Positions 1,400 through 21,787 are shown, numbered from the whole stretch's first letter. The stretch is DNA of 43,603 nucleotides, filler included, from Catajapyx aquilonaris (GCA_000934665.2; 2 parts of 2 records of this genome joined end to end with filler, not necessarily neighbours in it); one strand, 5' to 3'. Translations and numbers: made by a program. Notes: generated from the sequence alone by a model not told the origin.

Positions 1400-3006
1400 T
1401 TAATACACAATAGGGTAGGATGCTTCAGTGGCGATTCCACATCGATTGTTTGCATTTCTGATTATTTTGATGTAACCTTCCTCTCCCCAGTCAGATCCCC
1501 ACGAATTCTTGGCCAGCCAGTAATCCACGCCATAATCGGATCCATAGCCAACCACCAGAAGACCGTGGTTCACCTGCTCGTTGTCGCACTCCTCATCATC
1601 GTATACGCCAGAACTGAAATTACCAATACTCATTAGAGTCATTACAGGACATACCAGTCGGATAATATGCACGAGAGTGAATCCGGGCCTCTGACTGTCC
1701 ATTTAGTACCATATTTCGCACATAGATGGCGCATCCTCCCTTTCAGCACACTACTACCACTTTTATGGGGAAGGTGGTACTACATGCACATACTGTAAGT
1801 GAGCGGAGGTGATGACTCGCTCCGGACAAACAGAGGCACAGACTCAAGCCAATAACAACTATATCCTTATGACGACGACGACGACGATGATGATGATGAA
1901 CATACCTGTAATACTGGAAGGAGCTTGCGGCGGCATTGACTACCACACTAATTGGCCCAATTGCAGCTGTCGATCTCTGCAACTCCGCTTCGCTACAAGT
2001 CTCGATTGCTGCATAACCAGAAATTGTGGCTACGATCTTTCTGGAATCGAATTGGCACTGATCCTCCGGCTGAATCAAAATGAGGTAAGATAAATCAGAA
2101 GCTAGACACAACAAAAAGTCAACCTATGAAAGGCAAAGATGTTACTCACATAATCATCATTAGGATAATCATCTGCAGACTCGAGTCCACCAGAGTTGAT
2201 TATGTAATCGTACGCATCCTTGGTTTGACCCCCATCGCAGCCATAATCACTTACAGTATTGCAATTCAGTACTTGCTGAGAACTACAAGCCGTACATTAA
2301 CATACAGTTTTGTTAGTATTGGTAATATATGAAATGTATACTTCACCTGAGAGTAACCAACTTTCCGCTGGACCTCGCATATTGTCCTTCAACTGCGCCA
2401 ACGACTGAGTAGATCCAAGCAGCGTCGCAATCACTTCCGTCCAGCACAGGTGTCACCAAATTTCTCTCGCGCCAGTCAATCTGTAAATTTATCCCATTTT
2501 AATAGCGGATATTCAAAATATTGTTGTCTGTACCGTACCGTTGGAGGAAGGTCCTGCCCGTCATCGCCAAACTTGACCGCTTCACCTCTGACTCTTGGTG
2601 TGTAGGAAGTCATGGTCTTACGGAACTCTTCATTCGTCTAAAAATTCACAGTAATTAATCTCGGTTTTCTCCATTACGTGTAATCAAACCACTCACCATG
2701 TCTGCAAATTTGTTTTCGCCCATCGTAAACTTGTGCTTTCCTTGGGCTGCTTCTTGGTTGTGTTTCTGTATGTGGGCCATGTTGTTCTCCCAAACAAGAC
2801 GCCTCACAGGCTCCTCTTGAAGGTTGTACTTCTTGTTGTAGGCTACCTGTAATATTAATCAGAGTTAGTGAAATGAACCAAACTTTTTCACTTACAAGTC
2901 TTACCTTGAAATGTTGCCATGCGCTGTCCAGTTCTGGATTACCAACAGAAATCCTACTGGCAGAGGCAACTGTGACCACAAACAGAGCTAGGATGAGGAA
3001 ACGCAT
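1400..3006 (-). CDS. Cathepsin-L-like (papain C1A) pseudo-protease A1, 331 aa, catalytic Cys>Ala
   Basis: Seven GT-AG exons: 3006-2905, 2846-2697, 2637-2539, 2480-2347, 2282-2150, 2069-1906, 1613-1400 (996 nt, open). Signal peptide [22 protein letters not shown]-type motif [28 protein letters not shown]. Mature region [25 protein letters not shown] has Ala (2418-2420) at the CGSCW Cys position and Gly at the oxyanion Gln. [11 protein letters not shown] and KNSWG are retained. Confidence 0.95.
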
Positions 3007-3055
3007 TGTGATGTCTTGGGTTGAGGAACTGATGTGTTTTGGACTCACTGCTTGA

Positions 3056-3650
3056 TTTATATACTCTTTGGGGAGATGTCGATTTAAAGATGCCAAAGGA
3101 TAAAGGTGAAGAGGAGTATTTCCCGAAGTGGATGGGAATTTCCTACCATAGATTTGGAACAGATAAGTTTAGCATCACTTATTGTGTAATTTACACTGTT
3201 TGACCGAATAATGCGTAGTGAGCTGTCTATTGTGTGTGTCTCAAAAAGCTATTGTTTGCGTGAGATCCAACATGCTAGATAGTTCAATTCTGAGGCATGG
3301 GACGATTAACACACAAATTGATGCATAATAATATTAATATTATTGAAAAACTCAATTACGACTTTTGATCCTGTTGACATCAATCACGTAACGAACTGGA
3401 CGGATTTCATGTCTGGAAATTCCCTCGTTATCTCCATGTTTTGATTACACCACAATCAAGTTTTCAGATGATATTTATTAATTGCGGAATAAAATTTGTA
3501 ATGTGCCAGATTGCCCTTATCAAGCACTTCCATTGAGTGGTAGGAAAGACCCGGCTGTAAAGAGAAATGTTAACAACCAATAATCCAAGACCCCTTTATC
3601 ATCTCCATGTGACAGATTGAGAGATCGTCTAAGAAGGACGCGCTTATAAG
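3056..3650. promoter_or_regulatory. Divergent A1/B1 promoter with kappaB-like, GATA and TATA elements
   Basis: GGGAATTTCC at 3134-3143 and its reverse complement GGAAATTCCC at 3415-3424; variant TGGTAGGAAAGACCC at 3538-3552. GATA cores at 3098-3106, 3161-3167, 3428-3433, 3516-3521 and 3593-3600. TATATAAA on - at 3056-3063; CTTATAAG at 3643-3650. Confidence 0.7.
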
Positions 3651-3710
3651 TAATTGAAAGATCATAAGATATGTCAGTGACTCTATGTGCACCTAGTTAC
3701 AATCACCACA

Positions 3711-18521: not shown

Positions 18522-19553
18522 ATGCTGCTGTCCTGCTTCCTGTCCCTTGCTCTTTGCCCCGTGTCCGCCCGCCCAGGGGCCAAATCTGGCCAGATGATGG
18601 GCTTCGGCTCCGACTACAGGCTGGACACATAGTGCGGCCAGTGTCACGAGACATGAGTCAGTCGGACCATCGGGCTACCTCCCAGAAGTCATGACGTACC
18701 TGACCGTTGACGACGTGTACGGAGAGTGCTCTTGCGCAGTGCCCAGCATGAGAGTCTGTCCCACGGACAATAGCAGGGGCCTATATGTGCTACTTTTTGA
18801 ACTCACAGTCAGTTAAGCAGCTGTCCACACATAAAAGAGAGACATTCACAAAGGACCCAAAACTGGGCAAAACTGATAATTAATCAGTAGGGCGTATGTT
18901 TACTTGTCCGGAGTGAGTCATCAGTCATCACCACAACTCAGTCCTACCCACAAACTGTCCACGTAGTATCACTGTCCCTGAATCGATGGCACGTCCTCCT
19001 TCTCAAGACACTCCTGGCACGGTGAGAGAGATTGTGTTACTACGTGGACCTTGATGAGTTCAGGCACGTTCAGGTGATGACTCATCCCGGCCAAACGTAC
19101 AACAACAATTGGTAGTAGTAGGTTCGGGACCCTGTGGCCCTAATGAAAAATCTATCGACCTTAAAGAGGCGCATGTTCTCGCCATTTTCGATTCAGGGTC
19201 CGTGCAAACTAGGCTACAGATTCACGTTCAACTCTGGTTCAGCCGGGCAACAGCTATGGGTGTCTAAAGATGGCGAGTGCTACGAGGAAGGGAAGAGAGG
19301 CCACCCATGGCCTGACCACAAGATACTGATGCTCCAAGGGTACGAGGAGACGAGGTGCGTGGATCTGCGGGTCGTCTCGGTGCACGAGGCTCAACCTGAC
19401 ACAGGGGGAGCAAGGCAATGCAACAAGGCTCAACAGACAGTACCAAACTACCTCGTAGGATGTCTTCCAGCTGTCCAGGTTCTTGATGGGACGGAGTGTC
19501 CGGAAGGATTCGTCCATGCACCATGCAGCCTACGATGGAGTGTGTGTCCAAGG
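18522..19553 (+). pseudogene. Pseudogene D2 of the secreted Cys-rich gene
   Basis: In-frame stops TAG 18630-18632 and TGA 18654-18656, small indels, a disrupted exon-1 donor, an internal deletion in exon 2 (from 19197) and a frameshift near the C-terminus, all relative to D1. Confidence 0.93.
18901..19099. mobile_element. MITE in the D2 intron
   Basis: Imperfect terminal inverted repeats tacttgtccggagtgagtcatca / tgatgactcatcccggccaaacgta, inner inverted pair gtccacgtagta / tactacgtggac, TA at both ends. Absent from the D1 intron. Confidence 0.8.
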
Positions 19554-20479
19554 GTAAATTACCACGTGACACTGCTAAAATAAATCAAATTAAACACCCT
19601 AGTTGACCACAAGAGTTGTTGCAGGTTTTTGTCAATAAATCTGTAAATGAAATACCTGTAACTGTAGGTATACCACCTTGGTCGAAATCTTTAACAACAC
19701 ATACTTAAGATGACGAAAAAATACAATAAAGCGTATAACACACATGTACTCAAAATATTGCAAACGCGTGCGTCAGACTTTGATATAATAAGTTATATCT
19801 GATTGGATATGGATCTTGGTGAATGTCCACTTGTCCTCAGATCACGATGTTGATTAAAACTGTAGCAGCCAGCACTCACGTATGAATCCGTGCGGAAAGT
19901 CCAGCTTTACAGCAATCTTGACAATAACAACATACTCATGATCGAATTGAATCTTTAAAACACACTCATGCTGCTCATATCAATTGAAATGTCATCTCTC
20001 AAAGTACCAAGTCAATAAAGTCAATGTGATTGTATTATGCATCTTCTAGTCACTTGCTTGTAATATACAGTAGCTAAGATAACAAGTAGCCTATTGAAAT
20101 ACCTAACGTACATTATTCTTGCAACACTGCGGTTAAATATAACTTATACATTACGAATAATAAATTAAATTTTAAAAATGTTAAATTGAGATGCAAAATC
20201 AGTCAAACATTACAGCTGCAGATAAAATACAAATGCTCAATATTATTTTTAATTAGTCCATAAGTGATACCTTGGTGATACTTCGTCGACTATTTTCTTC
20301 AAATCACTTTAATTCACTCAAATAGACAAAATTCGCCGAATCTCTCTGACATTTACAGTGCGAAACGACACTTTCTCTCTCCTTTACCAAGTGACTCCTT
20401 TATCCCTTGCTTGATACTGAAATATCTCAAGTTGAAAGCATATAAACAGAGTTGCAGAAAACCTCTCAGCACCACAACG

Positions 20480-21787
20480 ATGAAAGTCATTATTCTCCTA
20501 ACAATTGCGTATGCCAGCAGAATTTCTGCAGGCAACAACCATCAACTAGATGCGGCATGGAAGCAATTTAAGGTAGAGTATTGACCCTAACAATGGGTGG
20601 CCAATTTAAATGTTGCATTGTTGTTTTTAGATAATATACAAAAAGACTTACGATCAGTCTGAGGAGACTTCAAGACGTCTGGTTTGGGGGTCAAACATCG
20701 GCTTCATTCAGAATCACAATCAAGAAGCTGCTCAAGGAAAACACACGTTCACACTGGCCGAGAATCAGTTCGCAGATATGGTCAGTTTCGCAACATTGTG
20801 GTGAAAACCAGCAACTGACACTAATGTTATTTTCAGACCAATGCTGAATTTCACCAGGCCATGAACAAGTACAGGCCCAGCAAGCCTACCAAGTATCACA
20901 ATGAAAAAGTCAATTCCTTCTCGGATGAATACCTGCCTAACCTGGTAAATCGCTAAACTTCTATGCAATGGTTTTAATTTTTAAATACAATTTTTGACAA
21001 CTTCGCAGATTGATTGGAGGGCCAAAAACATGGTGACTAGTGTGAAAAACCAGCAAAATTGCGAGGCCTCCTGGATATTCGCAGCAATTGGGGCCGTAGA
21101 AGGGGCGCATTCAAGAGCAACTGGAGAGCTGGTGTCTCTCAGGTGACATATCACAAACAATTAAATATATTATTAAGTAATGAACAATTAATCAAATCAT
21201 AATAATAGGGAAAATTGAAATCTGCCTATTTTAATTGCCAATAATATATAAGTTTTCCATTGCATGGATTTCTGATTATTACAGCCCTCAGCAATTAATG
21301 GATTGCTTCAATATTGGAGGTTATCCCGAACCCTGCGAAGGCGGATCAACTGACGATGCGTATAAGTACATCCTTAAAGCAGGAGGTGTCGTATCTCAAA
21401 AACATTACAATTATACCGCAGTTGTAAGTCATCTTTGGTATAATGTAACATAAAGCTGAAGACCACCATGAACTAATTTCTGCCACTTTTCAGCCGTCAT
21501 ACATATGCAGATTTGACAGCAGATATGTCAGAGCCTCTATCAGCGGATATGTTAAGGCGGAATCTGGATCTGAAAAAGAGTTGCAACGCGCAACAGCTTC
21601 TATCGGACCAGTAGCAGTGGCCATAGATGCCAGCCAGAAATCCTTCCAATTTTATTCGTAAGTGTAAGCGCATCTTGTATCTTAATAGCGCAGCTAACAA
21701 TGGGATTGACTCTTTCAGCGGTGGCCTGTAACCAGATACCCAATGCTCATCTACGAATCTTAACCACGCAGCTTTAGTTGTCGTCTA
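20480..21787 (+). pseudogene. Cathepsin-L-like C2 (Cys>Ser), premature stop in exon 7, truncated by the gap
   Basis: Exons 20480-20572, 20631-20780, 20837-20944, 21009-21142, 21285-21423, 21494-21657, 21719-gap. TAC>TAA at 21729-21731 lies before the His codon; VVGY>VVVY; signal peptide 3 aa shorter than in C1. Confidence 0.8.

Follow-up and report, generated by a model that had tools for sequence, protein, structure and literature searches.

A segmentally duplicated cluster of cathepsin-L-like genes lacking the catalytic cysteine in Catajapyx aquilonaris

The stretch of DNA analyzed here (the window; 43,603 nucleotides in two parts of the Catajapyx aquilonaris assembly GCA_000934665.2, joined with filler) is animal DNA with short introns and carries, at positions 1400-21787, six cathepsin-L-like genes of seven exons each, designated A1, B1, C1, A2, B2 and C2. 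Gene models were assembled from six-frame open reading frame pieces, and their GT..AG junctions were checked by hand. A1 (1400..3006, minus strand; 331 amino acids [aa]) consists of exons 2905-3006, 2697-2846, 2539-2637, 2347-2480, 2150-2282, 1906-2069 and 1400-1613, and B1 (3711..5404, plus strand; 336 aa) of exons 3711-3809, 3977-4126, 4196-4306, 4403-4545, 4603-4732, 4855-5015 and 5188-5404. C1 (7711..9171, plus strand; 336 aa) has exons 7711-7812, 7870-8019, 8077-8184, 8249-8382, 8522-8660, 8731-8894 and 8958-9171. The second A gene, A2 (13842..15568, minus strand; 332 aa), has exons 15467-15568, 15256-15405, 15099-15197, 14907-15040, 14575-14713, 14337-14497 and 13842-14055, and B2 (16306..17983, plus strand; 335 aa) has exons 16306-16404, 16580-16729, 16800-16910, 16993-17126, 17184-17322, 17540-17697 and 17767-17983. 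C2 (20480..21787, plus strand) is a probable pseudogene, with exons 1-6 intact (20480-20572, 20631-20780, 20837-20944, 21009-21142, 21285-21423 and 21494-21657) and exon 7 starting at 21719.

Comparison by blastn of the first 12.6 kb of the window with the next 10.4 kb identified two colinear units, unit I at approximately 616..9026 and unit II at approximately 12941..21787, which are 76-93% identical at the DNA level and represent a duplication of about 12.6 kb. Each unit contains an A gene, a B gene, a DUF4789-like gene and a C gene. All six cathepsin-like genes have their introns at identical alignment columns and in phases 0,0,0,2,0,2, as stated in a preliminary description of this locus, which had also credited five copies with fully open frames, a signal peptide, a prodomain, the disulfide cysteines, and the catalytic His and Asn. 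These attributes held in the details checked. Apart from C2, every copy has an uninterrupted frame of 331-336 codons from ATG to its stop codon, with all splice sites undamaged, and the N-termini of all copies are, by inspection, hydrophobic leaders ending in A-x-A/S.

The catalytic Cys25 is missing from every copy, being replaced by Ala in the A genes and by Ser in the B and C genes. The motifs around this position, GSDCDAAW (A1), GRDCDAAW (A2), DDFCGISW (B1), YEWCDTSW (B2) and QQNCEASW (C1 and C2), are identical to those in the preliminary description, whose claim of a cluster without the cysteine is therefore borne out in six of six copies. The codon at position 25 is GCT (Ala) in A1 (2418-2420) and A2 (14978-14980), TCA (Ser) in B1 (4472-4474) and B2 (17053-17055), and TCC (Ser) in C1 (8309-8311) and C2 (21069-21071). 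Exon 4 of A1, C1 and B2 was aligned with HMMER to solved chains of cathepsins L, V, S and K. No gaps were needed, query residues 1-44 corresponded to chain residues 5-48, and chain position 25 fell on query residue 21, an Ala in A and a Ser in B and C. In the best-scoring of the solved chains this position is likewise given as S or A, and these chains are presumably engineered inactive mutants. By comparison, in a MAFFT alignment of the window copies with 59 database homologues (those of 250-480 aa among 74 matches to exon 7 of A1), position 25 was Cys in 57 of the 59 homologues and Gly in the other two.

Other residues of the active site were affected to different degrees. Gln19 was present in 59/59 homologues in the same alignment, whereas among the window copies only C has it, the A genes having Gly and the B genes Tyr at this position; in B1, moreover, three extra residues precede Cys22. 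Position 23, a Gly in nearly all homologues and in P0206 (the nearest active relative, described below), has become Asp or Glu in all copies but B1 (five of the six). His159 was kept in all six copies and Asn175 in all five copies that reach it, and Trp177 was kept in B and C. Judged by these residues, lineage A would have neither a nucleophile nor an oxyanion-hole residue and is certainly not a nucleophile-based protease, while the B and C proteins, too, very probably bind without cutting.

The general architecture of a secreted cathepsin L precursor is retained. The Pfam domain Peptidase_C1 (PF00112) matches exon 7 of C1 (E 1.5e-25, profile positions 154-220), Inhibitor_I29 (PF08246) matches exon 2 of C1 (E 6.7e-14), and exons 4, 5 and 7 can be aligned to solved cathepsins. 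All six copies carry an ERFNIN-type spacing (E-x3-R-x3-W-x2-N-x3-I-x3-N) and a GNFD-type motif (xNxFxD) in the prodomain. The six Cys columns that form three disulfides are conserved in all six copies, the last column in the five copies that reach it. With the Peptidase_C1 domain, the I29 propeptide and the three disulfides all present, the predicted proteins belong to papain family C1A by homology; as for catalytic membership, His159 and Asn175 are in place, while Cys25 is absent throughout and Gln19 is absent from A and B.

The distribution of constraint along the protein is inverted relative to that in ordinary cathepsin L, as the prodomain is conserved above the enzyme body. Among A, B, C and P0206, identity is 66-77% in the I29 core and 49-56% in the mature part, whereas comparison of P0206 with 30 ordinary cathepsin L proteins of other animals gave median identities of 44% (I29) and 68% (mature part). 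Nonsynonymous divergence (dN) likewise separates the two regions: between lineages it amounts to 0.18-0.23 for I29 but 0.33-0.41 for the mature part. The enzyme body, but not the prodomain, has sped up.

Changes were also found in the residues lining the former S2 pocket. The residue aligned to position 214 of the human cathepsin L chain, which we take to be papain position 205, is Glu or Asp in A, Arg in B and Asn in C. Papain position 205 is called crucial for specificity in PMC4336737, by whose numbering the two residues that follow the GG of the CxGG loop are papain 67/68; this pair is Q-T in A, Q-M or N-M in B and S-T in C, as compared to L/W-M in aligned plant papain-like chains and L-M in P0206. 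The pocket changes are lineage-specific and conserved within pairs, and these substitutions by polar and charged residues are more suggestive of retuned binding than of decay.

A quick IQ-TREE search (LG+C20) was performed on 89 rows, which comprised the five window proteins other than C2 and 84 database proteins, namely all those retrieved that were 290-400 aa long and free of X; shorter and longer proteins were left out. In the resulting tree, A, B and C form a single clade (Shimodaira-Hasegawa-like approximate likelihood ratio test [SH-aLRT] support 99) with the topology (C,(A,B)), in which A+B has a support of 89. Protein identity between the lineages is 49-62%. The sister of the window clade, with an SH-aLRT support of 100, is P0206, a protein of 326 aa from a JGI record, which has an ordinary active-site motif, is 50-54% identical to the window proteins, and has a signal peptide and prodomain strikingly similar to theirs. 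Since the sister of the three-lineage clade is an active-type protein, a single old loss of Cys25 is most likely, and the codon path TGC>TCC>(TCA)/GCT is compatible with one loss. On this tree the pattern of missing cysteines is one of inheritance from a single Cys-less ancestor, not of chance.

Word searches with exon 7 of A1 returned the 74 matches mentioned above, all of them ordinary cathepsins with a best identity of 65%; P0206 as a query gave no match above 61%, and exon 4 of C1 gave three candidates, none of which scored. Neither these word searches nor an exhaustive search, which with the 44-position exon 4 profile only was a weak net, turned up an orthologue of A, B or C. Among the best 150 representatives of the 5517 matches to this profile, 15 lacked Cys25 in at least one stretch, and position 25 in the 179 stretches of those 150 included 13 Ser, 4 Tyr, 2 Gly, 1 Asp and no Ala. 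Ten Cys-less representatives were looked up, five of which could be named (the beetles Callosobruchus, Aromia and Molorchus, one fish and one nematode), and none of the ten is near A, B or C. The best of them is P0101, known from JGI/IMG, Logan and ENA records, with 47% identity to C1. It carries Ser25, its catalytic His is replaced by Trp, and a prodomain is absent from its record. P0101 stems independently from another organism and adds a further dead C1A lineage.

The GY+F3X4 codon model fitted to all six copies gave a ratio of nonsynonymous to synonymous substitution rates (omega) of 0.292. Fixing omega at 1, with the same tree and kappa held at its estimate, lowered the log-likelihood from -4188.92 to -4276.79 (twice the difference, 175.7), and omega is thus well below 1, not near it. 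Synonymous divergence (dS; Nei-Gojobori) between lineages is saturated at 1.3-3.1, and is undefined for the four A-B pairs; together with the tree, this saturation supports the three old lineages that had been proposed for the cluster. For the A-C and B-C pairs with estimable dS, between-lineage omega is 0.14-0.28, and for the mature part it is 0.16-0.18. Omega within pairs (bootstrap ranges in brackets) is 0.42 for A (0.25-0.85), 0.49 for B (0.33-0.76) and 0.41 for C (0.23-0.90).

Contigs from three DNA runs of one sample cover 4065-4555 of B1, 7903-8389 of C1, 16668-17136 of B2 and 14937-15417 of A2, and among the differences listed for these contigs no change was found at the four position 25 codons, where TGC or TGT would restore the cysteine. 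This sample may be the assembly's own source, and its agreement is weak as independent support. A further run, X5, comes from a second sample and study; its kind is not recorded, but it can be read as RNA-derived because its contigs skip GT..AG introns. One X5 contig of 1188 nt joins all seven exons of C1, with six of six junctions as modelled; the part for exon 4 was assigned to C2, whose copy is identical, and this produced two long apparent joints. X5 joints also match intron 6 of B1 (5015>5188) and intron 6 of B2 (17697>17767), and a loose end at 4126 runs on into the first letters of B1 exon 3. These matches show that C1, B1 and B2 give rise to transcripts whose splicing follows the models. 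X5 cover over A1 (bins of 1.7-5.0), A2 (0-0.4) and the parts specific to C2 (0) was counted neither for nor against expression. The preliminary description had held that the family is maintained rather than decaying, and had named transcripts as a check. Maintenance is supported by the overall omega, the rejection of omega = 1 and the spliced RNA-like contigs, with C2 as the probable exception; the spliced contigs are those of C1, B1 and B2, none being listed for A1 and A2.

Several features indicate that C2 is probably a decaying copy. An in-frame TAA is present at 21729-21731, where C1 has TAC, and exon 7 is cut by a run of N at 21788; the read-contig comparison took in 20 kb, and this stop codon lies outside it. 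The leader of C2 is shorter, and C2 carries E55G and K63N (alignment numbering) at prodomain positions that do not vary among the other copies. When changes between C1 and C2 were polarized, seven were assigned to C2 and three to C1, and the dN of 0.039 between them is close to their intron divergence of 0.041 (Jukes-Cantor). Intron divergence is 0.20 for the A pair and 0.27 for the B pair but only 0.04 for the C pair, which suggests that the C segment was homogenized by gene conversion or was re-copied later than the rest. Intron 3 is identical in C1 and C2; the segments compared were 7569-9026 and 20356-21787.

Taken together, these data probably describe a lineage-specific family of secreted pre-pro-cathepsin-L homologues that have kept the papain fold and the prodomain, are not peptidases, and would act as cleft binders (pseudoproteases). 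The ancestor would have been an active, digestive-type cathepsin L in which one old Cys25->Ser change occurred. Subsequently, this gene would have split into the lineages C, B and A, with Ser changed to Ala in A and Gln19 lost in A and B, and the family would then have been doubled by the segmental duplication of about 12.6 kb. The fact that the nucleophile-free A lineage shares both purifying selection and its ancestor with B and C makes a non-catalytic role the simplest function common to all three. C1A zymogens do not activate themselves without Cys25, and the prodomain of these proteins may therefore be removed by other proteases or be retained. The proteins may bind in the former substrate cleft, and a likely role would be soaking up cystatin-type inhibitors, or holding peptides or other partners, as measured for the beetle protein Sl-CathL-CS. 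By analogy, binding of inhibitors or other partners in the cleft appears to be the likeliest mechanism.

A number of points weigh against this interpretation. Within-pair omega values of 0.4-0.5 are high for a tightly constrained protein, and no spliced RNA contig for A1 or A2 was found among the X5 contigs listed. The digestive site is only assumed, as the tissue of X5 is not on record. Asp or Glu at position 23 could impede substrate or cystatin binding as easily as tune it, and the retention of Ser25, His159 and Asn175 in B and C, plus Gln19 in C, would allow for a weak hydrolase or other activity. Finally, this genome's own active cathepsin L genes are outside the tree, so that a single loss is the most parsimonious history rather than a proven one.

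A bolder version of the binder model, which is rather unlikely as a whole, would place the constraint on the prodomain. According to it, A, B and C would be three ligand-specific binders, whose locked pro-forms or released I29 propeptides buffer active cathepsin L, and the acidic (A), basic (B) or neutral (C) residue at the bottom of S2 would set the partner of each lineage. If true, a pseudoprotease acting via its propeptide would represent a new mode of action for C1A homologues. The related proposal that the I29 prodomain is itself the functional module, making these proteins permanently locked zymogens or carriers of an inhibiting propeptide that regulates active cathepsin L, has a somewhat lower probability still. 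It could explain why the I29 core is better conserved than the mature part both in identity, a relationship reversed between P0206 and ordinary cathepsin L, and in dN between lineages, and it agrees with the self-activation that these proteins would presumably lack. However, purifying selection extends to the mature part, and this part has kept the disulfides, His and Asn, which would be superfluous in a mere carrier, and conservation of the prodomain may reflect a folding need alone.

Ser-type catalysis has been proposed for silicateins and SERA-type proteins, and B and C could by the same token be working enzymes with a serine-type triad (Ser25-His159-Asn175), leaving only A inert; this is as doubtful as the prodomain proposal. 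The retention of Ser, His, Asn and Trp177 in B and C and of Gln19 in C is compatible with such a triad, as is purifying selection on the mature part, and silicatein alpha is among the solved relatives that were matched (PDB 6zq3). Like B and C, the silicateins of sponges are cathepsin-L-derived and carry a Ser25-His-Asn triad. However, the nucleophile-free A lineage belongs to the same clade and is equally constrained, B is without Gln19, and silicatein scores below ordinary cathepsin L against the window exons (2e-9 for silicatein alpha vs 1.6e-11 for the best cathepsin, and 1.2e-23 vs 1e-29), so that the window genes are not closer to silicatein than to cathepsin L. We know of no link between the window genes and silica, and their host is arthropod-like. 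The arthropod Cys->Ser homologue that has been assayed was moreover inactive on both cysteine- and serine-protease substrates, according to PMC8583781.

That the genes are functionless, decaying pseudogenes or assembly artefacts is very improbable and already disfavoured for A1, A2, B1, B2 and C1, as the lesions of C2 (stop, gap cut, E55G and K63N) and the similarity of C1/C2 dN to intron divergence are set against five open frames with intact splice sites, the rejection of omega = 1, the transcription and splicing of C1, B1 and B2, and the agreement of the DNA-run contigs at the covered position 25 codons, among the differences listed.

Inactive C1A homologues are already well documented in beetles and the scabies mite, and the window family adds to a known kind; what is new is the greater conservation of the prodomain than of the enzyme body, and the lineage-specific polar or charged residues in the S2 pocket. 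The closest functional parallel is Sl-CathL-CS of the weevil Sphenophorus levis. According to PMC8583781, this protein carries a Cys->Ser change, is inactive on Z-FR-AMC and regains activity after Ser->Cys reversion, and bound a cystatin more strongly than its revertant, for which its authors proposed a role as an inhibitor decoy shielding true proteases. Like the window genes, it is an arthropod cathepsin-L homologue that has retained propeptide and His, with the same replacement as in B and C, and the source describes it as expressed alongside active cathepsin L paralogues. By comparison, of the three lineages in the window one carries Ala25 and two have lost Gln19, and their S2 residues are polar or charged. 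The tree gives no common descent with the beetle Ser25 homologues: P0225, the one placed in it, lies far from the window clade, whose sister is P0206. Identity to C1 is 38-41% for the beetle Ser25 proteins P0225, P0100 and P0083, and the partial P0201 shares 32% of its residues with A1.

Other beetle proteins of this type include TmL29 (QAHN) and TmL30 (ESHN) of Tenebrio molitor and Tribolium XP_970773, which are listed as "cathepsin L homologs" in PMC4336737. These homologues are described there as gut-expressed, with C25A or Q19E + C25S, in an expanded, tandem cathepsin L family. Compared by these descriptions, the beetles have one to two such proteins per species with Gly23/Gly65 kept, whereas Asp or Glu occupies position 23 in five of six window copies. 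The five SMIPP-Cs of the scabies mite, as presented in PMC5956821, share with the window family that they are monophyletic, multi-copy, secreted C1A homologues with changes of the oxyanion-hole Gln. All of them have a Cys->Ser change, lie next to active paralogues and, in addition, have lost the catalytic His; they derive from group-1-allergen-type proteases and are 21.5-27% identical to their active paralogues. The window copies differ in keeping His (6/6) and Asn and in being 50-54% identical to their nearest active relative, and the SMIPP-C type was ruled out by the presence of the catalytic His in all six copies.

With active cathepsin L (MEROPS C1A; e.g., P0206) the window copies share the signal peptide and prodomain, the fold signatures and disulfides, and both His159 and Asn175, but they lack Cys25 (6/6) and, in A and B, Gln19. 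Their mature parts are 49-56% identical to P0206, which in turn is 68% identical in this part to cathepsin L of other phyla; their distance from P0206 thus equals or exceeds that between P0206 and those enzymes. In the literature searched, supplements excepted, no Cys-less cathepsin L clusters were found in crustacean-like arthropods. The tick literature on "pseudoproteases" was rejected as a parallel, as it deals with S01 chymotrypsin-like homologues and not with C1, and no inactive C1A homologues are mentioned in the available part of a spider-mite comparative study.

The family may thus represent a clean, datable case of a protease family that shed catalysis and was nevertheless retained, with a probable history of one loss, three long-lived lineages (one of them without any nucleophile) and a recent segmental doubling. 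It opens no new field, comparable families having been described in beetles and mites, but the inverted conservation and the charged, lineage-specific pocket residues offer concrete hypotheses on the ligands of dead proteases. It also provides a warning for annotation. The beetle Ser25 homologues carry names such as "Cathepsin L" or "Gut cathepsin L-like cysteine protease" from their sources, so that plain cathepsin L names are attached to Ser25 proteins in public databases, and the suspicion in the preliminary description that the window genes would be misannotated as ordinary cathepsin L is plausible to that extent.

Among the neighboring features are X1 (5864..6760, plus strand), a secreted, Cys-rich, DUF4789-like gene of two exons between B1 and C1, and its copy in unit II, X2 (18411..19583, plus strand; recognized as a duplication match), between B2 and C2. 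The Pfam matches to DUF4789 are weak (23.1 and 19.1 bits, below the curated cut-off of 27), and the nearest Atlas clusters of the X1-type gene are DUF4789 proteins, which are commonest in Arthropoda. X1 is transcribed, as an X5 contig joins 5940-6184 to 6350-6888. Both genes belong to the duplicated unit and not to the cathepsin family. At the start of the window, a C2H2 zinc-finger coding sequence (1-369, minus strand) runs off the window; it is adjoined by an acidic upstream open reading frame at 533-796 (minus strand), of which a diverged copy with about 80% DNA identity is found at 12606-13100 (minus strand), at the start of unit II. The duplication thus seems to include part of a zinc-finger gene.

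A search of the window against Rfam identified no RNA family. The spacer at 9400-12800 contains very high-copy repeats, with a word depth of up to approximately 67,000 in the DNA runs as compared to 30-50 over the genes, and many contig joints and loose ends fall within it. Two (AAT)n microsatellites were also present, one of 34 units at 13602-13706 and one of 39 units at 5034-5150, within intron 6 of B1; owing to the latter, this intron is 172 nt long, as compared to 69 nt in B2.

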